DNA of 39,573 nucleotides from a virus, in the IMG/VR virus record IMGVR_UViG_3300033075_000869; one strand, written 5' to 3'. Positions 6,351 through 29,115 of this stretch are shown piece after piece. Positions within the stretch are counted from its first letter, which is position 1; the number at the start of each line of letters is the position of its first letter. The notes beneath the pieces were generated by a model. It saw only the letters and a program-made list of their open reading frames with translations. It was not told where the DNA came from and made no database searches. The position numbers were made by a program, and so were the translations under genes.

Positions 6351-7382
6351 ATGAACAAAGTCATTGAATCTTGGAAGTGGCCTTCCATTGAAAGTTTTTA
6401 CAACGTTCGTAAAACGATTCAAAAATATGGCGTCGCCGCTGGATCGATTGTTACGTATCGTGCAAAGGTGAAATTGCATGGTGCATGCGCTGCTTTTTCA
6501 ATTGATGGCGATAGTGCCCGTGGTGCTACGCTTCAAACGTATTCTCGAACAGCGATTGTTACACCCGAGAGTGATCCCATGGGATTTTCTAGGTGGATCG
6601 AAAATCGTCGTGATCAATTGTTGTCGTTGCATCAACCTGGAACGAGTATCATTGTATACGGCGAGTGGACCGGTCAAGGTATTCAAAAGGGTGTTGCTGC
6701 GAGTCAAGTCGAACGTTTCTTCGCTGTTTTCGCTGCTCGAGTGTCTCGAGTGGAAGACCCAATGAGTGAGGAATTCATTACTGATCCGGATGAACTTAGG
6801 GTCTACGTTCAGGGTGTTCCGGGTTGTTATGTGTTGCCTTGGTTCAATGACGGTGAAGAATTTGTTGTTCCATGGGAGGCAGATTCTGATTCTTTTGAGA
6901 ATGTTATTTCGAGAATGAACTCTCACGTTGCCGCAATTGAGGCATGTGATCCGTTCGTGTCGAAAACTTTTGGTGTTGCAGGTATCGGCGAAGGTCTCGT
7001 ATTTTATCCAGTGTCAGAACAACATTGTTCATTTGGCGATTTTTCTTATCTCTGCTTCAAGGCAAAGGGTGAGAAACACAAAACGATTGTTCATGCTGCA
7101 CCGGTCCAGGCTGAGCCGACAGTCATTGAAGGTCTTGATGAATTTGTTCGCAATGTGTTGCCGTTGTCTAGGCTCGAACAAGGTGTTCGGGCAACAAACG
7201 ACGGGTCTGACATTGCAATGATGGTCAATTTGGGACCGTTCTTGAAATGGATTGGTCTCGATCTAGAAAAGGAAACCGTGGAAGAGCTACGTGTCTCTGG
7301 TCTTGATCGCAAAGTGGTCTTCAAGAAGTGCAATGAATATGCTCGCAATTGGTTCATGAACGAATCGAGGAAACTGTTATGA
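6351..7382 (+). CDS. RNA ligase, Rnl2 family
   Basis: Motif I KLHG (T4 Rnl2 KIHGTN) and motif IV YGEWTGQGIQKGV (Rnl2 FGEFAGPGIQKNV). Confidence 0.75.
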   Translation: MNKVIESWKWPSIESFYNVRKTIQKYGVAAGSIVTYRAKVKLHGACAAFSIDGDSARGATLQTYSRTAIVTPESDPMGFSRWIENRRDQLLSLHQPGTSIIVYGEWTGQGIQKGVAASQVERFFAVFAARVSRVEDPMSEEFITDPDELRVYVQGVPGCYVLPWFNDGEEFVVPWEADSDSFENVISRMNSHVAAIEACDPFVSKTFGVAGIGEGLVFYPVSEQHCSFGDFSYLCFKAKGEKHKTIVHAAPVQAEPTVIEGLDEFVRNVLPLSRLEQGVRATNDGSDIAMMVNLGPFLKWIGLDLEKETVEELRVSGLDRKVVFKKCNEYARNWFMNESRKLL

Positions 7383-7967: not shown

Positions 7968-8314
7968 AAAAAGGTCTGTATACACCACGTCCTGGAGATC
8001 TGTTCAATTGGCATTATGATCATGATGATTCAAAATGTAAAGATGACGATAAAGTTTGGTCGTCGTCTATGAAATGTTGGGTACTATGCAACGGTATTAA
8101 CATTCTAATCTCACTAACCGAAACTGATATGTGGTGGATTAATAATCAGAGCTTCATCCACGCGCGCGTGGATAAAATTCCGTCGGCCGCCTGGGTAGGC
8201 GTTCCTCGGCGCTGCTTCATCCACGCGCGCGTGGATAAAATGTTTACACCGACTAGTACTCATATCGCCGAGCCTGGCGAGCGAGCTTTGTCTACGCATA
8301 ATGAAATAACATGA
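7964..8314 (+). CDS. family A small paralog with internal 60-bp tandem duplication and aberrant C-terminus (possibly decaying)
   Basis: FIHARVDK is encoded twice by duplicated palindromic DNA. The C-terminus lacks the family's HPR motif. Confidence 0.45.
   Translation: MKKGLYTPRPGDLFNWHYDHDDSKCKDDDKVWSSSMKCWVLCNGINILISLTETDMWWINNQSFIHARVDKIPSAAWVGVPRRCFIHARVDKMFTPTSTHIAEPGERALSTHNEIT
8153..8238. repeat. Tandem direct repeat of TTCATCCACGCGCGCGTGGATAAAAT (2 copies, 34-bp GC-rich spacer), each holding a perfect 18-bp palindrome ATCCACGCGCGCGTGGAT
   Basis: Exact 26-mer at 8153-8178 and 8213-8238. The palindrome is perfect. The segment is locally GC-rich in an AT-rich genome. Confidence 0.7.
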
Positions 8315-9090
8315 CAACCAAAAATCTATTGACTCGCATGAAAGGCTATGAAGAAGCATCAAGGATGATTCTTCCTGGTCGTTCACCTGTTATTCTCCGT
8401 CTCGACGGAAAGTCGTTCTCAACGTATACTCGTTCCCTGGGAACTTTTAATCACTCATTCGCATGGTTGATGAAAGAAACAGCGGTTGCTGTGTGTAAGC
8501 ATATCCAGGGCGCAACGTTCGCTTACACCCAATCTGACGAAATATCAATTTTGATTCACTCTTATAAGAAGCTGAATTCTGAACCGTGGTTTGAAAACTG
8601 TGTTCAGAAGATGGTTTCTGTTTCGTCTTCAATTGCTGCAGTTACATTTACGTTGGGATCACCACAACTTTTTAAGGATGTGTTGGCCGAACCTCGGGCC
8701 GAGGATGCCCGCCCGGCATATTTTGATGCCCGTGTATTTGTCGTTCCAGAAAATGACGTTGTGAATTATTTCGTCTGGCGTCAACAAGATGCAACACGAA
8801 ATGCAATGTCTATGTGGGCTCGTTCACTTTTCTCAGCGAAAGAGATTCATGGGAAAAACTGGCAACAGATGCGTGAGATGTGTGAAACCCGTGGTGTTAA
8901 GTGGGACGCTCTTTCTCCTCAATTTACACGTGGAACCGGAATATCACGCGTCGATGGTCATTGGACAATCGACGATGAAACGCCACTGTTTACTACGAAC
9001 AGGGACTACATCGCTCGGCATCTCGAACTAGAAGAAGGCTTACGTGAAGCTGTATTACGGCCCACGAGATGGCCCACGTATTACCCGTGA
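8311..9090 (+). CDS. Thg1-like protein (tRNA-His guanylyltransferase family, 3'-5' nucleotidyltransferase)
   Basis: RLDGKSFSTYTR and AYTQSDEISIL motifs typical of the Thg1/TLP palm domain; about 260 aa. Confidence 0.7.
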   Translation: MTTKNLLTRMKGYEEASRMILPGRSPVILRLDGKSFSTYTRSLGTFNHSFAWLMKETAVAVCKHIQGATFAYTQSDEISILIHSYKKLNSEPWFENCVQKMVSVSSSIAAVTFTLGSPQLFKDVLAEPRAEDARPAYFDARVFVVPENDVVNYFVWRQQDATRNAMSMWARSLFSAKEIHGKNWQQMREMCETRGVKWDALSPQFTRGTGISRVDGHWTIDDETPLFTTNRDYIARHLELEEGLREAVLRPTRWPTYYP

Positions 9091-14033: not shown

Positions 14034-14269
14034 AAACACGTCTCAAATTTCATGTATTTCCGGGTGATATTCCTAAACGTAACAAAATTGCGATGATGGA
14101 AAATCAGGATGCTGAACTTGCTATTGAAACATACGGTGGATTGAAAACACAGAAGAAGCGTCGTAAATCATATAAACGAATGATTCTGAGTAAAGAACGC
14201 GCAGTGTTGAAACGTCGAGAACAAAATGAAATCAAAAATTCGACATCTTCTGAAGAATTACGTTACTGA
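14030..14269 (+). CDS. small basic protein
   Basis: K/R-rich 79-aa ORF (KKRRKSYKRMILSKERAVLKRREQ). Confidence 0.4.
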   Translation: MKTRLKFHVFPGDIPKRNKIAMMENQDAELAIETYGGLKTQKKRRKSYKRMILSKERAVLKRREQNEIKNSTSSEELRY

Positions 14270-14759
14270 AATTGTCAAAGGAACCGAAGGTCATACAACG
14301 GGTCTGCTTCAAGGTTCAGTATCGACGTCAGTATATGCAGGTAATGTGCTGCGTGATGAAGAAGAAAATGAAAAGAAACTAAAGCGAGCTGTATGTCTGC
14401 TGGTTAAACATCCATCATTGCCAAATATATACCTTGCTGTTTCCCGCAAAGATGATCCCAACGATATGGGCCTTCCTGGTGGGAAAGTAGACGATACTGA
14501 TGTGTCTCTTGAAGACGCTGCTGCAAGAGAACTTCAAGAAGAAACTGGCTTGATAGCAACACATATTTCAAGTCCTATTTTTGTTCGATCGGCTGATGGT
14601 GAATATACTTGCACCACATTTGCAGCAACAGTTGCTGGGAATATTGAAACAGAAGAATCTGGCGTTGTTCGTTGGGTATCACCTGAAGAACTTGTTGCGG
14701 GTTGTTTTGGTGAATATAATAAGTTGATGTTTAAGAAATTGGGAATCAAATATGAATAA
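14226..14759 (+). CDS. Nudix hydrolase with N-terminal MKSKIRHLLKNYVTEIVKGTE motif
   Basis: Nudix box GGKVDDTDVSLEDAAARELQEETGL, nearly identical to MutT GGKIEMGETPEQAVVRELQEEVGI. Confidence 0.75.
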   Translation: MKSKIRHLLKNYVTEIVKGTEGHTTGLLQGSVSTSVYAGNVLRDEEENEKKLKRAVCLLVKHPSLPNIYLAVSRKDDPNDMGLPGGKVDDTDVSLEDAAARELQEETGLIATHISSPIFVRSADGEYTCTTFAATVAGNIETEESGVVRWVSPEELVAGCFGEYNKLMFKKLGIKYE

Positions 14760-16996: not shown

Positions 16997-17226
16997 TTGA
17001 ATTTACTGGATCTAATCCACGTGTTCCTCTGTACAGATATTCTGAAGGAGATCCATCTGGAGGACCAGAACATGATTTCTATTTGTACATGAATACAACT
17101 TTCATGATTGTTTCGGCAGTAAATACAACCCATCGTGAATCACACGTAGATTACTTTGTAATAACTGAAGGTGGTGGTATGGGTTGGACAATGTGGTATC
17201 CTAAAAATTTCAAGATTATCAAATGA
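16957..17226 (+). CDS. PGT-motif small paralog (IAPGTLCYA...MGWTMWYPK)
   Basis: Paralogous to 16700-16996. Confidence 0.5.
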   Translation: MVIAPGTLCYATLIEFTGSNPRVPLYRYSEGDPSGGPEHDFYLYMNTTFMIVSAVNTTHRESHVDYFVITEGGGMGWTMWYPKNFKIIK

Positions 17227-18179
17227 AACATCCAAATCCAAATATGTTGTTGCACATTGCCATGGGCGATGCATATGCTACTGCAGTCGAATATGTTAAG
17301 CGAGAAAAACACGCTCAACTGTATGATGCTGCACTGCGATTTCAAACATATCTACAACACCCTACGCACCTAAAACTCAAACCGGGTATGTATACCGATG
17401 ACACACAGCAAAGTATTGCTGTCGTAGAAGTTTTGTTGGGAACACAAGCACCACGTGTTCCAGATTTTCTAAATGCATTTTACGACGTATTCAAACGTGA
17501 CCCTCGTGATGGATATGCTCGTGGATTTCAAGGTCTAATTGAATCTGTTGAATCACGTGATGAATTTCGTTCGAGGATCATTCCAAACTCTAATAAAAAT
17601 GGCGCAGCAATGCGCTCTGTCCCAATTGGCGTCATTAAAGACGTAAATCAACTTGTCGATATCGCTGGGGTTCAAGCCACTGCTACCCATGCAACATGGG
17701 GTGGAATCAACAGTGCAGTCGCTGTTGCTCTTATGTCGCATTTTGCGCTATATGATCATCGTAATTTTCTATACATGAGAGAATGGTGTGCACGATATTC
17801 GTCTGCATTTCAGTTTTTTGGGTCACCATGGTCTGGTCCGGTCGTTAGTGACCCAAAAAATCCCAAAGACATGGGTGTTGGTATGAATACTGCATGGGCT
17901 GTTTGCACATTGCTCGAACAAGAAACATCATTGATGGGAATAATGCGGCGCGTAATTGAATGGGGCGGTGATACTGATTCTGTTGCAGCAATCGCGTGGG
18001 GAATAGCGGGAGCTCGTTACGGTCATGAAATTCTACCAAGCTTCCTAGAACACGATCTTGAACCAGGTTCTCGATATGGCGTTCAATTTCTAAAAGACCT
18101 AGGTGAACGCTTGATGACGGTTGAAAAATTGTCTTATGTAAAACACCCATTATTTGTGGTAAAGTTACTTATACTCTAA
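17223..18179 (+). CDS. ADP-ribosylglycohydrolase (ARH/DraG family)
   Basis: N-terminal GDAYATAVE, TDDTQQS and C-terminal GGDTDSVAAIAWGIAGARYG signature motifs. Confidence 0.8.
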   Translation: MKHPNPNMLLHIAMGDAYATAVEYVKREKHAQLYDAALRFQTYLQHPTHLKLKPGMYTDDTQQSIAVVEVLLGTQAPRVPDFLNAFYDVFKRDPRDGYARGFQGLIESVESRDEFRSRIIPNSNKNGAAMRSVPIGVIKDVNQLVDIAGVQATATHATWGGINSAVAVALMSHFALYDHRNFLYMREWCARYSSAFQFFGSPWSGPVVSDPKNPKDMGVGMNTAWAVCTLLEQETSLMGIMRRVIEWGGDTDSVAAIAWGIAGARYGHEILPSFLEHDLEPGSRYGVQFLKDLGERLMTVEKLSYVKHPLFVVKLLIL

Positions 18180-23814: not shown

Positions 23815-24005
23815 GTTCTTTCAAATGTATATGATTCCATTGAGAATTCTCCTACGTTATTCCCAACGCTCAATATTTTAAGTTCTATCCAATTTTTGGG
23901 ATACACTACGATTGAACACTGTATTACAAGTCTGATTTGATTATCACTCTTACGAATAATCAATGTTCCGGGTAGAATCGCTGTCATCCAGCTTGGAAAC
24001 GTCAT
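23793..24005 (-). CDS. PGT-motif small paralog
   Basis: ILPGTLIIRK. Confidence 0.4.
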   Translation of the reverse strand: MTFPSWMTAILPGTLIIRKSDNQIRLVIQCSIVVYPKNWIELKILSVGNNVGEFSMESYTFERTWQILTT

Positions 24006-24391
24006 TCACTTATGATGTGCCACTTAATGTTTCTATCTGTTTCCCACAATAGGATAGAAAATACTTCTCGATTTTTTAGCACTACAAATTCAGTTGCTTC
24101 TTCCCTGTTTTTGTAGAACACTTGGTACGATATTATCGTTCCGACCATTTGCTTGGGTCGATCAGGCGAACCGGACAGCAATATGCTACCTGCTCGTATA
24201 TGTGTTTTTCCAGGTTGAATTTTGAACGTGGATTCGCAACTTGTAACCACATTTATTGCACGAAAAATTTGACCAAAAATTGCCATTGATCCGACTGTCA
24301 ATGTATTCAACGTTGTTTGAGCCGCATTTTGTGCAAGGTTCACGGTCCAGCCGGTTGAAAGTTTTTTCAACAATCGAATTGATTCGGTCAT
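24002..24391 (-). CDS. hypothetical protein (start uncertain; overlaps 24186-24473)
   Basis: ORF of 129 aa in a different frame from the Zn-ribbon ORF. The real start is probably internal. Confidence 0.25.
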   Translation of the reverse strand: MTESIRLLKKLSTGWTVNLAQNAAQTTLNTLTVGSMAIFGQIFRAINVVTSCESTFKIQPGKTHIRAGSILLSGSPDRPKQMVGTIISYQVFYKNREEATEFVVLKNREVFSILLWETDRNIKWHIISE

Positions 24392-24473
24392 TATCTATTC
24401 GTTTCCACACTATTGAAGCGATAATACAAAAGACGATGCATATAAGAAACAACGTAATGAATATTGCAATCAT
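24186..24473 (-). CDS. membrane-anchored zinc-ribbon protein
   Basis: N-terminal TM segment IAIFITLFLICIVFCIIASIV, then CTKCG...CNKCG. Confidence 0.45.
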   Translation of the reverse strand: MIAIFITLFLICIVFCIIASIVWKRIDNDRINSIVEKTFNRLDREPCTKCGSNNVEYIDSRINGNFWSNFSCNKCGYKLRIHVQNSTWKNTYTSR

Positions 24474-24584
24474 AAAATGACTACGCTTATCATAGATATG
24501 GTACCCAATGTTGTCCTGTCAGGCTGCCATGGGAGCCCACTCGAGACATTGGAATAAAACACTTGATAATAACCATATGTTTCC

Positions 24585-24863
24585 TTATACAATTTTAATG
24601 CAATTATCTCTGACCCACCAATGCGCAATATCGATCAAATTTGATCGATATAGAATTTTCACCATGATATCATCTGATTTGATAAAATGATGTGTTGGAA
24701 TATCAGGATAACATGGAATATCTTGATAACAACAAACGACTATGAACAGTTCACCTTCGCCAATGATTGTCGACACGCTGTTTATTTTAAAACAGCGATA
24801 TACGCGGTTCGTTTTGTAATACGAACCTGGTGAAATGTATGAATTCATAATGAAATTATACAC
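24585..24863 (-). CDS. small paralog-like protein (ISPGSYY)
   Basis: ORF of 92 aa with a PG motif near the N-terminus. Confidence 0.35.
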   Translation of the reverse strand: MYNFIMNSYISPGSYYKTNRVYRCFKINSVSTIIGEGELFIVVCCYQDIPCYPDIPTHHFIKSDDIMVKILYRSNLIDIAHWWVRDNCIKIV

Positions 24864-24891
24864 CGTACAGCATCAAAAGTACATTTAGAAC

Positions 24892-25242
24892 ATGGGTTTT
24901 GAAATTGATCTTGGTGATGATGCAACTGTTCAAATAATTTGCGATGAATTCGAAATAGAAATACCGCAGCATTTTATTTGCTTGAATTCAACAGAGATTA
25001 ATAATATTCCACACAATGAAAAACCCGGAGCGCGCATTATAGGATGTGGAAGGTGTAGCAATGGAAATATTGACTTGCTAACAAATGATGGGAAACTACT
25101 AACATTCTCTGCAAAGAAATATGATATCCCGCCGGGCATAGTTGAACCAATTTTGTCCGGTCTTAAGTTGAACATCGGTAACACACATACAGTTGCATCT
25201 AGCTGGGTAATTGAACGTGCTGAATGTTTGATACGTACCTAG
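24892..25242 (+). CDS. hypothetical protein
   Basis: ORF of 116 aa. Confidence 0.45.
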   Translation: MGFEIDLGDDATVQIICDEFEIEIPQHFICLNSTEINNIPHNEKPGARIIGCGRCSNGNIDLLTNDGKLLTFSAKKYDIPPGIVEPILSGLKLNIGNTHTVASSWVIERAECLIRT

Positions 25243-25252
25243 TTATCGATGT

Positions 25253-25510
25253 ATGCTAACAATAAGCGTTGGTCAACTACGCAAGCTAATCAAAGAAGAA
25301 GTATTTCGTAATCTTGCATGGTCTGCAGGATTCTTTGGAAGTGGTCTAAATGGTGCAAGTAGTAATACGTCAAGTGGGACAGCAACTGTTCCACCTGGTC
25401 TTGGTGACGAAGAAGAAAACATAGAAAATGAAGAAAAAGAACAAGAAGAACTCGAATACCTCAGTCAACGTGGCGCAGCAGCAAATTCTCGAAAGGGAGG
25501 ACGCTATTGA
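25253..25510 (+). CDS. small acidic protein with N-terminal [15 protein letters not shown] motif (internal-protein-like)
   Basis: 85 aa with a Gly/Ser-rich middle and an acidic E-rich tail. The N-terminus carries the shared LRKLIxE motif. Confidence 0.5.
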
Positions 25511-25772
25511 ACTTCACGGAATCATTGAAGAGGCTCTGCCGGGAACATGGTTTCGTGTAACATGTGACAATGGTCACAGTGTGTTGGCGACACTGTCTGG
25601 TAAGTTGCGGATAAATCATATCCGCTTGCTGCCTGGTGATAAGGTGTCTGTTGAAGTTTCGCCTTATGATCTATCTCGTGGTCGTGTTACATACCGACGT
25701 TTAGATAGGCACATATGCGCCTCCAAAGAATCATTGCATTTGTTGGAGGCGTTTTTGTATTTAATGTTCTAA
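25428..25772 (+). CDS. infA: translation initiation factor IF-1 homolog with N- and C-terminal extensions
   Basis: [64 protein letters not shown] is near-collinear with E. coli IF1 ([64 protein letters not shown]). The exact start is uncertain. Confidence 0.8.
25719..25762 (+). terminator. Intrinsic terminator: 8-bp stem GCCTCCAA/TTGGAGGC followed by GTTTTTGTATTT, lying inside the last codons of the IF-1 ORF
   Basis: Perfect inverted repeat at 25719-25726 and 25743-25750, then a T-rich run. Confidence 0.5.
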
Positions 25773-25786
25773 TATACGACGGATAC

Positions 25787-25854
25787 GCCAATTGTCTATT
25801 GGCAATACTCATGACACAACTAGCCATATGGCTAAGTTCACCAATTCTAGAATT
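25787..25854. repeat. Cluster of three palindromes in a convergent intergenic region: GCCAAT-tgtct-ATTGGC, TAGCCATATGGCTA, AATTCTAGAATT
   Basis: Found at 25787-25803, 25821-25834 and 25843-25854, between convergent IF-1 (+) and the minus-strand gene. Confidence 0.4.
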
Positions 25855-26689
25855 ACGCTGCGCTCTCTTCTTTGTTCATGTAATTAACATGAGCTAGCAC
25901 TTCTTTATGACGTGCTTGAAGCGTTGTGTATATAATTTTTGATTCAGCTTTCCATTCAGCAGAAAGTTGTTTCATGCCATGTCCTTGTAGCTCATCATAA
26001 ATTTCGTCAGAAGTTGAACTCAAAATTGAGCTAATGGTCGACCATGGAACTGATGAAAAAGTTGCACCAGCTTCCTGTAGATCTCCATATTGAAACACTT
26101 TGCCAGAACCACCAAAATCAGGCTTAAGCATTGTCTCAAGTTCACCAGGCTTGTTTCCAAATTTTGAGCCCTTACGACCACCTTGTGCTCTAAATGTAAG
26201 TGAACCACCAGGATCGATGCGGGTTGCAACATCTTTATCAACAATGATATTGCCTGAACCAGTTCCTATTACGTCCCAATTTGCCAAGAAGATATCTACG
26301 TATATACCTGCTGTCAACATTTTTGCTAGTTTCTTAGGATCTGTTCGAACGTCACCTGCCATCTTGCCCGGAATAGCAGACGTTGCCAGTCCAACTTTTG
26401 CACCTTTGGTGTCATAAACTAGTTCGATTTTAGGAATGTTAACGCCTTCATAAAGTGAATATACCTTATAAGCAAGGTATTCAACCAAGATTTGCAATGA
26501 AGGATTAACATCGTCAATCAGACTTTCGTCTGTGAACTTAAGATAATATTTGTCTCCACCAATTGAACACGTTTTCATAATGTGTGTTGAACCGGTTGCA
26601 AAACATACATCACCAACATCTTCAATGTTGATTTCATTCAAAATCGATTCTCTAATTAGTTGACGTAGTGTTTCAATATTTATATACAT
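25853..26689 (-). CDS. hypothetical protein with N-terminal MYINIETLRQLIRE motif; possible atypical kinase-like fold
   Basis: ATG 26687-26689 verified; the track ORF uses TTG at 26719. Motifs GSTHIMK...YYLKF, DIFLANWDVIGTGSGNIIVD and RIDPGG vaguely resemble PI3/4K- or HipA-like catalytic and DFG loops. Confidence 0.5.
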   Translation of the reverse strand: MYINIETLRQLIRESILNEINIEDVGDVCFATGSTHIMKTCSIGGDKYYLKFTDESLIDDVNPSLQILVEYLAYKVYSLYEGVNIPKIELVYDTKGAKVGLATSAIPGKMAGDVRTDPKKLAKMLTAGIYVDIFLANWDVIGTGSGNIIVDKDVATRIDPGGSLTFRAQGGRKGSKFGNKPGELETMLKPDFGGSGKVFQYGDLQEAGATFSSVPWSTISSILSSTSDEIYDELQGHGMKQLSAEWKAESKIIYTTLQARHKEVLAHVNYMNKEESAA

Positions 26690-26715
26690 TTGACGTGTGT
26701 TCCTTTTTGATTTAA

Positions 26716-29115
26716 TCAAAAACTGTGTTCTTGAAACCCAAATTTTGATTTCAACTTAGATTTTGATGTTGACCAATAAATTTGTGTAACTTTTATCTGA
26801 CCAATTCCAATAGCTTCATCTTCTTGAGTATGAGAATCAAATCCCGGGACTTTATAAAGTCCACCTGGGCCAAGAACAAACTTGTTAGGATTATCATCTG
26901 TTGCGGCAACAAGAAATATTGAATAACCGTCATCACTATTTGCAAAGCTCAAAGCTTGTTCACGGCTAATAGACCAACTTGTTACACCACGATTTTCTTT
27001 AGGCGTAAATGTAAAAGATGCTTCTTTGTGACCATTTTCATCAAGATCGTCTTGATTGTCAATTTTTAGTGCAGACATTAGCCATTTTTTATTAACACTC
27101 ATTCCCCTATAAACGAATTCTTGTGTTGGTTTTTTAAAGATTGAATCATATTGATCAGTTGCCAAAATTTGGCTTATTTCATTTGCAAGTTCTTGTTTGA
27201 TCGGGGTGTTATCCTTGAAGTGAGCAACTAGTGCAGTATAAAGTTCTTGTTCTCGCGCAGTATCAACTTCAATTGGCAATTGAAAACGCTTTTCTGCAAA
27301 TGCATATTGATTTAGAATTGCGTCTTCAGGTGCTTCAGGTGGATTCTTTTTTATTATTTTTCTTTTTTCTACTTCAAATTCTTTAATATAAGGCTCTAGA
27401 ATTTTTTCAATTTTTTCAATTACATTTTGTCGTTCTGATTCTGATGTTGAATTCCACGCAGATACTAGATCATTTTTATGATCAACAGGATAGTGTTTAT
27501 CACTACCCGATGACATTGAATACACAATTGTAAACCAGTTAGAGTCAATATCATTGTCAAAAAATTTATTCCGCAGTTCAGTTTTTTTATCGTATTTGAT
27601 ATTTGCTGATACAGCAAGTTTTCGCAATGTTGACATTGTTTCTAGAAACAATGGATCTTTAAGTACTGTATTAGTCGAAATGATTTTATCGACTTTGTCT
27701 TCAAGCATCTTTAGAGAATGCATTCCTTCATCAGTATCATGATCCACATTTCCAATTTTAAATGCACTTTCAAGCGTTTTATAAAAATTTTCTGTGATTT
27801 CACTTGGTTGAGTTCTAAGCAAACTTGCAATCTTTGCTCCAAATTTCCATACAGGTATTTTATTGTATTCATCAGCATCGAGTGTTATAAGTTTTCGAAT
27901 AATGCTAATTATGAGCAAAAATCTATCTTTTTGATTATTACTCAATGAATATGATTCAATTTTTTTCAAATCAGATTTGACTTGATCAATGTTTGTTTTT
28001 AGAGTTTGTATAAACGATTGTGATTTACTACGCTCGGCACAAGCATCAGTATATGTCTTTGTAAATGAACGTGGTGATTCTGAAAATGCACTAGAAATTA
28101 GTTTTCTTGTAAAGCTATCGCCAACACTATTTGTAATCAAAGAAACAAATGTTGGATCAGAAGGTGAATTTTTAATCAATTCAAAAATTTGGGTCAAGTC
28201 GTTCTGAATTGACCAAGTTTTAATGGCAACTATTTCGTTGGCAATGTTGTTTAGAATTTGTTCAGTATCATTTAGTAGAACTTCATATGCTTTTGTAGCA
28301 TTTTTACTGCCCGGCGATTTTGCAACTGCACGAACCAAATTATTCCAAGTATTACGTGATTCATTATGATTCTTAGAATTTAGTGTTAGCTCATGAATGA
28401 ACTCATGAAAAAAATCTACAAGACGCCAACTAAGATTATTTTCATGCTCAACACGTATAACATTTGATAGTTTTAGTTCTTCAGCAACATCTGGGGTTAT
28501 GTTTTTTGTTCTTTTAACAATTTCGTCAAATATTTGTTTTTGAAGTTTTGGATCGTTTTGATCTGATAGATCAACTGAATTGTTGAATTTTTCAAAAAAT
28601 TCATCAAGTTGTGCATCACTTAGTTTGTTCAAAATGTTATGAAAAACATGATCGACTTCATATATCGAAGCACCACTCTCATGCCAAATTTCATATGCAT
28701 CACGAAATTCATCAATAATATCACTTGATATTCCGTCAAGCGAATCTAGAATCTTAAAAACAATGCGTGGCTTTATTGCAGTGATATCCTGCTTAATCCA
28801 ATTCATGAATTTATATGTCGACATTTCAAGCAGCAGCATTGCTGTTTGGACTTTTACGCGCTTCATATGAATAATTAGGCTAAACGCATCTAAAACTTCA
28901 TAATCGTGTATTGAACGTGACGGTGCCTCTGTACAAACTTCAATTCCTGTACAACCAGATTCACATGTATGCGAATAAACCACACAGGACGTTTCAGCGC
29001 GGGAATTACGAACTTCTAGAACAGATGCAATATAAGTCCTAAGACTAGGTATCACCAAACCCGTATACCAAAATACATTCGAACATACACGAAAAAATTT
29101 TGCTTTGATTGGCAT
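26716..29115 (-). CDS. large (799 aa) protein with N-terminal Cys cluster and C-terminal R-S-E ADP-ribosyltransferase-like domain
   Basis: C-terminal about 180 aa: FVYRG (Arg), about 44 aa later TSWSISREQALSFA (STS-like region), about 50 aa later PGFDSHTQEDE (ARTT loop + ExE). The spacing is typical of C3/iota/Alt-type mARTs. Confidence 0.55.
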   Translation of the reverse strand: MPIKAKFFRVCSNVFWYTGLVIPSLRTYIASVLEVRNSRAETSCVVYSHTCESGCTGIEVCTEAPSRSIHDYEVLDAFSLIIHMKRVKVQTAMLLLEMSTYKFMNWIKQDITAIKPRIVFKILDSLDGISSDIIDEFRDAYEIWHESGASIYEVDHVFHNILNKLSDAQLDEFFEKFNNSVDLSDQNDPKLQKQIFDEIVKRTKNITPDVAEELKLSNVIRVEHENNLSWRLVDFFHEFIHELTLNSKNHNESRNTWNNLVRAVAKSPGSKNATKAYEVLLNDTEQILNNIANEIVAIKTWSIQNDLTQIFELIKNSPSDPTFVSLITNSVGDSFTRKLISSAFSESPRSFTKTYTDACAERSKSQSFIQTLKTNIDQVKSDLKKIESYSLSNNQKDRFLLIISIIRKLITLDADEYNKIPVWKFGAKIASLLRTQPSEITENFYKTLESAFKIGNVDHDTDEGMHSLKMLEDKVDKIISTNTVLKDPLFLETMSTLRKLAVSANIKYDKKTELRNKFFDNDIDSNWFTIVYSMSSGSDKHYPVDHKNDLVSAWNSTSESERQNVIEKIEKILEPYIKEFEVEKRKIIKKNPPEAPEDAILNQYAFAEKRFQLPIEVDTAREQELYTALVAHFKDNTPIKQELANEISQILATDQYDSIFKKPTQEFVYRGMSVNKKWLMSALKIDNQDDLDENGHKEASFTFTPKENRGVTSWSISREQALSFANSDDGYSIFLVAATDDNPNKFVLGPGGLYKVPGFDSHTQEDEAIGIGQIKVTQIYWSTSKSKLKSKFGFQEHSF

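Follow-up and report, generated by a model that had tools for sequence, protein, structure and literature searches.

The DNA analyzed here (the window) is a complete 39,573-bp metagenomic contig, the IMG/VR virus record IMGVR_UViG_3300033075_000869, and the element in question is an open reading frame (ORF) encoding a bacterial-type translation initiation factor 1 (IF-1, infA type). As listed in Table 1, this gene is overlapped by neighboring genes at both ends, since its first codons, which encode a lysine-rich N-terminal extension, lie over the end of an 85-amino-acid (aa) ORF, while its last codons run into a small hydrophobic ORF whose own first codons form an RNA hairpin. An earlier, sequence-only reading of this DNA had reported an IF-1 ORF at 25428 to 25772, and the ORF is indeed present, with 114 codons between an ATG start and a TAA stop. 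Homologous loci on related contigs are labeled L003 to L181, and proteins P0001 and so on.

Table 1. Features at the IF-1 locus of the window, followed by the 3' ends of IF-1 and the hairpins in the window and related loci (dG, folding free energy; RBS, ribosome-binding site; SD, Shine-Dalgarno)
Feature	Coordinates	Strand	Basis or description
IF-1 (infA-type) gene, 114 codons plus TAA	25428..25772	+	ATG start; ORF list, profiles, PDB, dN/dS
IF-1 OB-fold core, R23-L92	25494..25703	+	infA profile on residues 23-90; AlphaFold; invariant columns
Basic, disordered N-terminal extension, 22 aa	25428..25493	+	Homolog conservation; ATG in 16/16 loci; pLDDT 43-62
SD-like AAGGGAGGA, codons GAA AGG GAG GAC (E-R-E-D), apparently not an RBS	25493..25501	+	Family conservation
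Upstream 85-aa ORF with 16-aa N-terminal leader and acidic tail	25253..25510	+	Called on the window contig as P0126
Non-conserved C-terminal run-on tail, 22 aa	25704..25769	+	Shares DNA with the small ORF from 25715 onward
Small hydrophobic ORF, 60 aa, two hydrophobic segments	25715..25897	+	-1 frame relative to IF-1; ATG 25715
Conserved RNA hairpin, 10 + 4 bp	25717..25752	+	Starts at the G of the small-ORF AUG; U5 at 25752-25756
Convergent 288-aa ORF	25853..26719	-	Likely start ATG 26689, MYINIETLRQLIRES; ORF list; shared leader motif
IF-1 end in L180, L181			...YRR* (canonical stop)
IF-1 end in L177			...YRRL plus 9 more residues (LITIDVPSIN)
IF-1 end in window, L009-L011, L178, L179			...YRRL plus 22 more residues
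IF-1 end in L003-L008			No stop; in-frame fusion to 60 further codons (P0002)
Hairpin in window			dG -19 kcal/mol; z -4.3 vs shuffles
Hairpin in L003			dG -23.9 kcal/mol; z -3.8
Hairpin in L180			dG -12.6 kcal/mol; z -3.3
Hairpin in L177			dG -12.9 kcal/mol; z -2.2

The identity of the protein was assessed with profile, structure, and substitution analyses. The NCBIfam equivalog model for infA, TIGR00008, matched with 97 bits against a cutoff of 61.15 (profile positions 1 to 68 on residues 23 to 90), and the entire 64-position profile of PF01176 aligned with residues 27 to 90 (E = 8.5e-23; 80.2 bits against 30.2). IF-1 chains in the PDB matched with E values of 1e-25 to 1e-19, including those of Escherichia coli (1AH9; E = 5e-22) and of the 30S-bound factor from Thermus thermophilus (1HR0), and models for eIF1A/aIF1A stayed far under their cutoffs (TIGR00523, 23.6 bits against 102.9; NF003086, 26.1 bits against 202). 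Identity to E. coli IF1 was ∼55%, and 18 alignment columns were invariant with the E. coli row included. An AlphaFold model built on 48 homologs contained five strands (residues 27 to 36, 42 to 46, 51 to 56, 72 to 77, and 84 to 90) and a short helix (58 to 62), with a per-residue confidence (pLDDT) of 87 to 92, as well as a moderately confident helix at residues 100 to 113. Moreover, the ratio of nonsynonymous to synonymous substitution rates (dN/dS) was 0.07 to 0.10 against relatives. The S1/OB-domain homology proposed before therefore holds, as TIGR00008, PF01176, and the PDB chains agree, and the failure to align with infA profiles that had been named as a possible, though unlikely, refutation was not seen. 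The ORF is a real bacterial-type IF-1, and judging from its sequence it is predicted to be functional, with ordinary binding to the 30S A site.

Like bacterial IF-1 (InfA; 1AH9 and 1HR0), the phage protein has a single OB fold, exceeds the equivalog cutoff, carries the GK(L/M)R, PYD, and GR motifs, and is ∼55 to 62% identical over 68 residues. Unlike it, the phage protein is 114 aa long rather than the canonical 71 to 75 aa, with 22 aa ahead of the profile match and 24 aa behind it; the surplus consists of a 22-aa basic N-terminal tail and a 22-aa C-terminal tail past Leu92, and the gene is overlapped by its neighbors at both ends.

The lysine-rich extension had been suspected on the premise that translation begins at ATG 25428, and comparison with the homologs bears it out. 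Five Lys residues fall within its first 10 residues, its net charge is +4, and all of its 22 residues are modeled as disordered. In the homolog set, which consists of 97 analyzable top matches, 83 proteins have a K/R-rich Met at least 15 aa ahead of the core, and close homologs begin with M(A)KKNKKN, followed by about 12 polar residues and then ERED-x-ELxG. All 16 related jumbo-phage loci retain the K-rich ATG, and in L012 and L013 no other canonical in-frame start precedes the OB fold, which argues against the start being ambiguous, as the sequence-only reading had it. In L017, L018, and L023, Lys is replaced by Arg through CGN and AGG codons, and the tail stays basic though the overlapping frame is no longer acidic; because these K/R swaps keep the charge where the other frame is not acidic, the basic tail appears to be selected in its own right. 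The extension was absent from the 80 best bacterial-genome IF-1s, among which only those of Myxococcota had a short basic one. Taken across these homologs, the N-terminal extension appears to be a real, clade-wide trait. It may help the phage IF-1 to hold mRNA, tRNA, or rRNA on the A site of the host 30S subunit, and may thereby favor those messages of the phage that lack an SD sequence.

A strong SD element inside the ORF had been the reason for doubting this start. The motif AAGGGAGGA is present, although the coordinates given earlier were one base low, and its GGAGG (25496 to 25500) is complementary to the anti-SD; however, it spells the codons of E-R-E-D, and no canonical start follows it. 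ERED or ERQD is kept across the family and aligns with K-E-D at the N terminus of E. coli IF1. Within reach downstream of AAGGGAGGA there is no in-frame ATG, GTG, or TTG, the sole in-frame candidate being ATT 25506, and the TTG at 25507 lies in another frame, where it opens 17 codons. Across the window, GGAGG was found upstream of none of the 24 gene starts inspected (partial GAGGA or AGAGG in two), and any SD-like 4-mer was found upstream of 7 of 40 long ORFs. Since no canonical start follows AAGGGAGGA and the genome barely uses SD, the start is not ambiguous on SD grounds. This scarcity also suggests SD-independent initiation in the host or the phage, which would bear on why the phage carries an IF-1. 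The bases upstream of starts in the window are A/T-rich.

Initiation at ATT 25506 would nevertheless give IF-1 its canonical length, leaving the K-rich region untranslated or a by-product of the upstream acidic tail. GGAGG lies 5 nt before this ATT, the ATT overlaps the upstream TGA (ATTGA) in the manner of a coupling junction, and dual K-rich/E-rich coding could arise passively from GAA repeats. We consider this very unlikely, given that the ATT is ATC in L003 and CTA in L012, that the upstream stop moves, that the genes of this genome do not use SD, and that the K-rich ATG persists, as does the basic composition through K/R swaps, in loci whose other frame is no longer acidic.

The upstream ORF, which the sequence-only reading did not mention, consists of its leader, a conserved RN-x-xWSAG-x-F block, a PPGLG motif, and the acidic tail, and it overlaps the start of IF-1 by 83 nt, with IF-1 in its +1 frame. 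A homolog in the same +1 relation occurs in all 16 loci with the K-rich ATG, where the overlap ranges from 20 to 116 nt and the position of the upstream stop varies. Its dN/dS was 0.22 against L003. The overlapping DNA is purine-rich, reading E-E-x-E in one frame (GAA-rich) and K-K-N-K in the other (AAG-rich), and the K-rich tail thus looks as though it was overprinted on the acidic C-terminal tail of the upstream ORF. In the 83-nt overlap, a hand count on the alignment of the window with L003 gave 5 or 6 nonsynonymous changes and 1 synonymous change in each frame.

The +1 relation also raises programmed frameshifting, either a +1 shift of the RF2 kind at AGGGAGGA-CGC-UAU-UGA (25494 to 25510), which would join the leader ORF to the IF-1 core, or a -1 shift from IF-1 into the small ORF, and both together were judged highly improbable. 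For the +1 shift, the window has an SD-like element 4 nt before UAU UGA, the +1 frame is that of IF-1, and the relation recurs in 16 of 16 loci. However, the stop of the upstream ORF lies elsewhere in L003, L012, L013, and L015, without the SD-stop geometry, which is found only in the window; the tRNA reading UAU cannot re-pair on AUU; and no in-frame fusion of the leader protein to IF-1 occurs among the homologs. Because the stop moves in other lineages and UAU cannot re-pair in +1, the RF2-like geometry is taken as a coincidence. For the -1 shift, the small ORF lies at -1 with a strong hairpin beside it, and one sister lineage has it joined in frame to IF-1, but there is no slippery heptamer before the hairpin and no spacer, and a -1-frame TAG intervenes at 25706 to 25708.

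Several observations concern the leader of the upstream ORF. The motif M-x-I-x4-LR-x-(L/I)I-(R/K)-E heads otherwise unrelated ORFs of the window at 25253 (+), 26689 (-), and 29164 (+), and recurs in L015 (10484 and 10868), L019 (3483), L022 (3399), and L029 (3385); one family of leader-bearing proteins shares an EDC(Y/F)GPVPP motif. In T4, capsid-targeting or prohead-protease-processed N termini are short peptides, shared by otherwise unrelated proteins, that end in (L/I)-x-E. The leader resembles such N termini, a likeness that may serve as a lead for the upstream ORF; a T4 capsid-targeting sequence has been described (PMC3012670).

At the other end of the gene, the ∼20-aa C-terminal extension described before is present, whereas its ascription to a terminator is not supported. 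Counted from residue 90, where the infA match ends, the tail is 24 aa long, and counted from the shared Leu92 it is 22 aa; TAA 25770 closes it. Among the 97 homologs, 92 end 1 to 3 aa after GRxxxR. Intermediate lineages, recovered by searching with the upstream ORF, showed four states of the junction (Table 1), from a canonical stop through extensions of two lengths to an in-frame fusion, and each state was found again in independent sequencing runs. Over the 19 codons common to the tail and the small ORF, dN/dS between the window and L003 was 0.13 in the small-ORF frame and 1.5 in the IF-1 frame. The comparison therefore indicates that the C-terminal tail is a lineage-specific run-on into the neighboring gene and is not conserved. 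In L003 to L008 (for example, L003 9956 to 10423; at least six sequencing runs), IF-1 is fused to a 60-aa hydrophobic peptide to give a protein of ∼155 aa, potentially a membrane-tethered IF-1 as far as its sequence suggests. The out-of-frame TAG at 25706 to 25708 was also considered as an ancestral stop displaced by a 2-nt insertion, and this idea was dropped, as the TAG is absent from L009.

Sequencing or annotation error was weighed as the source of both extensions, with a frameshift error near 25704 to 25712 removing the true stop and the N-terminal start being overcalled. A 2-nt length difference from L003 falls precisely at the junction, and some automatic calls place the IF-1 start at an internal GTG (P0001 and P0002). 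However, assemblies made independently from other runs (L009, L010, L011, L178, and L179) show the same frame arrangement at the junction, and at least six runs contain the fused form, while the internal GTG is not conserved and L012 and L013 have no other canonical start. The error foreseen as a possible refutation is thus extremely improbable.

The small ORF into which IF-1 runs, absent from the sequence-only reading, encodes a strongly hydrophobic peptide (grand average of hydropathy, 1.30). Homologs were found in L003 (fused to IF-1), L180, and L177, with no stops in four lineages, and the window and L003 are 63% identical in nucleotides over the ORF, with zero indels or stops. Its dN/dS was 0.11 to 0.23 in four of six lineage pairs, dS being saturated in the other two, while the other frames over the same DNA gave 0.4 to 2.8 and contain stops. 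Judged by these substitution patterns, the small ORF appears to be under purifying selection. A small hydrophobic ORF comes after IF-1 in most loci of the clade, at a distance of 0 to 14 nt in six more distant loci. A protein search with the small ORF returned no candidates, because gene callers did not call it separately; it was called as a gene in L179 only.

The hairpin at the beginning of this ORF is formed by the inverted repeat GCCTCCAA (25719 to 25726) and TTGGAGGC (25743 to 25750), followed by TTTTT (25752 to 25756). Hairpin and T-run together make up codons 1 to 14 of the small ORF: its AUG and codons 2 to 4 pair with the codons for (V/I)-G-G-x-F, and the T-run, GTT TTT GTA TTT, is read as Val-Phe-Val-Phe. 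Counted along the 3' arm, pairing at positions +4 to +13 survives across lineages by way of GU intermediates and of two double changes that are compensatory, one in L003 (A-U to G-C) and one in L177 (G-C to A-U). The 5' arm of L177 has moved by one codon (3 nt) and specifies YHRS in place of RLQR, yet it still pairs. As the 5' arm was re-registered with changed residues while pairing was kept, the comparison points to selection on the hairpin as an RNA structure. In L003 and L177, all three bases of the AUG are paired. Relative to the hairpin, the stop of IF-1 falls ∼10 nt upstream, inside, or farther downstream, depending on the lineage. An independent, perfect 18-bp hairpin (z = -5.6), with no U-run, surrounds the start of the small hydrophobic ORF in L021 (3265 to 3310), a distant member of the clade.

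The sequence-only reading had taken this hairpin for the terminator of IF-1. The hairpin and the T-run are real and the ORF runs through them, but they form the 5' end of the small ORF, and termination there would leave a nonstop IF-1 message in three of the four lineages. Read as an intrinsic terminator or attenuator of the IF-1 unit, the hairpin and U-run would make the tail incidental and the small ORF expressed only from read-through transcripts. Consistent with this, the stem is stable, U5 follows it directly in the window and L180, the hairpin is kept in four lineages with U4 to U5 behind it, and the site lies at the end of the plus-strand gene block, just ahead of the convergent genes; moreover, L180 has the order IF-1 stop, hairpin, U-run. 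However, termination at about 25757 to 25762 would precede the IF-1 stop at 25770, as it would likewise in L177 and L003, and a ribosome translating through the stem would suppress the hairpin, which lies inside both the IF-1 ORF and the small ORF and is downstream of the IF-1 stop only in L180. In addition, the U-run consists of a conserved Phe codon and its neighbors, only three U follow the full stem in L003 and L177, and the analogous hairpin of L021 has no U-run. A pattern scan called no terminator in 24000 to 27000, although at this hairpin the scan came up empty because the loop exceeds its limit. On balance, we regard termination as the primary role of the hairpin as somewhat unlikely.

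Alternatively, the hairpin may keep the small membrane protein off until ribosomes translating IF-1 melt the stem, that is, by translational coupling. Under translational coupling, the IF-1 stop would be free to drift, because IF-1 ribosomes reach or cover the stem in all four lineages. In the coupling of MS2 coat to replicase translation, a hairpin occludes the start of the downstream gene. The arrangement proposed here is the same in that the downstream start is buried in a stem that would be opened only by ribosomes on the upstream ORF, and different in that the upstream stop ranges from ∼10 nt before the hairpin to an in-frame fusion and the coupling is drawn from sequence comparison. Coupling is the favored reading, its own likelihood being put just short of even, and the two functions are not mutually exclusive.

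Overall, these data are probably best explained by a functional IF-1 with an overprinted basic tail, which runs on over a small ORF whose start is buried in a conserved hairpin, in a fragment of a jumbo phage. Several points weigh against this explanation. The choice of start codon, ribosome binding, and coupling are all deduced from sequence, and no phage structural hallmark gene (capsid or terminase) lies within the window. The hairpin with its U5 looks like an intrinsic terminator, and L180, where the IF-1 stop precedes the hairpin, fits one well. With respect to the small ORF, substitutions between the window and L009 are too few to demonstrate continuing constraint within the window lineage (dN/dS, 0.29 for 46 codons and 0.66 for all 60); it lacks an SD and, in L180, also an AUG at the homologous position; and in the window, the IF-1 stop lies 55 nt downstream of the small-ORF AUG, which is far for termination-reinitiation. 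Finally, the small hydrophobic ORFs of the distant loci are only 14 to 21% identical on alignment, with no demonstrable homology, and homology of the small ORF is therefore not claimed beyond the sub-clade.

The phage context was examined by gene content and synteny. The window encodes GroEL, an RNA ligase, a Thg1-like guanylyltransferase, two NUDIX hydrolases, an ADP-ribosylglycohydrolase, an AAA ATPase, UvdE, a 5'-3' exonuclease, papain-like and trypsin-like proteases, and a major-vault-protein-like gene. The order ADP-ribosylglycohydrolase, AAA ATPase, UvdE, GroEL, IF-1, and vault-like protein is common to the window and contigs of 270 to 340 kb; IMG/VR relatives reach 340 kb, and several of the syntenic contigs are themselves in IMG/VR. 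PHROG matches support the phage context of the window, PHROG 30201 matching IF-1 itself. Because of the synteny with the 270- to 340-kb contigs and the size of the IMG/VR relatives, the window is accepted as a likely fragment of a jumbo phage from a widespread uncultured clade, whose longest contigs are ∼270 to 370 kb. The closest bacterial-genome IF-1 matches are 51 to 67% identical and scattered across many phyla, and no host can therefore be inferred.

Further features of the neighborhood were recorded. Proteins of 111 to 121 aa encoded close to IF-1 in L013 (16187 to 17344, minus strand) and L012 (12154 to 12519, minus strand) gave matches to short stretches of the T4 Gp23 major-capsid profile (E = 2e-8 to 8e-7), and their counterparts in the window gave no match. 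A cluster related to RNA or nucleotide repair or modification (8311 to 9090, 6351 to 7382, 107 to 652, 14226 to 14759, and 17223 to 18179) includes the Thg1-like tRNA-His guanylyltransferase (PHROG E = 2e-69), the RNA ligase, the two NUDIX hydrolases, and the ADP-ribosylglycohydrolase; no tRNA genes were found in the window. The vault-like gene (32914 to 35520, minus strand) encodes an 868-aa protein with major-vault-protein domains (MVP_shoulder, E = 1.5e-30; Vault_3; SPFH/Band 7), which is unusual in phage and is kept in related jumbo-phage contigs, including the ends of L013 and L014. Downstream of IF-1, the small ORF and the convergent 288-aa gene share their last 45 nt (25853 to 25897), leaving zero intergenic space, and the cumulative GC skew peaks at this strand switch. 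Counterparts of the 288-aa protein (276 to 289 aa) are syntenic in L003, L013, L177, and L178. Pfam, PHROG, NCBIfam, and PADLOC gave no match for the upstream ORF, the small ORF, the 288-aa protein, or a 799-aa protein, and Rfam gave none in 24800 to 26200 at E ≤ 1. Automatic gene calls at the locus were inconsistent, IF-1 being omitted in L177, L178, and L180 and elsewhere shortened to an internal GTG; the double overlap defeats standard gene callers.

An IF-1 gene in a virus had been considered notable in itself, but phage IF-1 is known. IF1 and IF3 were reported among the translation genes of huge phages by Al-Shayeb et al. in 2020 (PMC7162821), and "IF 1A" is a core gene of Jug phages (PMC12880540). 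Moreover, IF-1 was found in 36 GenBank phage records, some annotated as infA, including Lak phages, Sinorhizobium phage Phosso, and Acinetobacter phage MD-2021a, and at least 459 IMG/VR stretches encode it. The gene described here shares with those of huge phages (PMC7162821, PMC12880540) that it is a phage-borne IF-1, proposed to redirect host translation initiation. In 25 of the 36 GenBank records, tblastn matches all begin at query residues 16 to 23, and the K-rich extension is therefore not covered in any of these 25. We found no description of the clade's N-terminal extension or gene overlaps in the literature, where phage-borne initiation factors are catalogued and none was found characterized. 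The novelty thus lies in the clade-wide basic tail and the double gene overlap, and not in phage IF-1 as such.

Extensions of a similar composition occur in other initiation proteins. In the N-terminal tail of yeast eIF1A, basic residues contact mRNA, tRNAi, and rRNA, and weak or poor start sites are favored (PMC5756025). As in that tail, an unstructured, basic, K/R/G/N-rich segment of ∼20 aa precedes a homologous OB fold in the phage protein. Here, however, the core is of the bacterial type and there is neither a helical subdomain nor an acidic C-terminal tail: members of the clade end 1 to 3 aa after the OB fold, and the C-terminal tail of the window protein is hydrophobic, not acidic. The resemblance to the eIF1A tail is one of composition only, an analogy that would imply neither function nor homology. 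Phage rpS21 of huge phages likewise has a basic N-terminal extension, predicted to bind RNA (PMC7162821); it too is a small phage-encoded initiation factor with an acquired basic N-terminal extension, although it is another protein at another ribosomal site. In addition, E. coli IF1 with an uncleavable N-terminal His6 tag has been used for biochemistry and structures, in a study that did not examine the effect of the tag (PMC13345285).

A bolder reading, which we regard as quite unlikely in its entirety, is that the jumbo-phage clade has built an 'eIF1A-like' IF-1, joining the bacterial OB core to a selected, disordered, basic tail that would re-tune start-site selection by the host. By this analogy, the tail would extend to mRNA and initiator tRNA in the vicinity of the P site, stabilizing initiation on weak phage starts that lack an SD; it would have arisen by overprinting of the acidic tail of a gene for a possibly capsid-targeted protein, and translation of IF-1 would gate the small membrane protein by means of the conserved hairpin over its start.

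The original framing of this locus, with a terminator-encoded tail and an ambiguous start, is mostly explained by neighboring and overlapping coding sequence. For annotation, the locus calls for caution, as gene callers drop or truncate IF-1 or drop the small ORF. Its three consecutive overlapping genes, with an acidic tail over a basic one and a drifting stop over a start-occluding hairpin, offer a natural example of overprinting and, if the hairpin acts as proposed, of coupling. Moreover, an IF-1 whose one systematic departure from the host factor is a basic tail of 20 aa, and whose genome makes no use of SD, is a compact and testable case. If the tail alters start-site choice, it would show a virus re-tuning bacterial initiation and would be a convergent parallel to the eIF1A tail.

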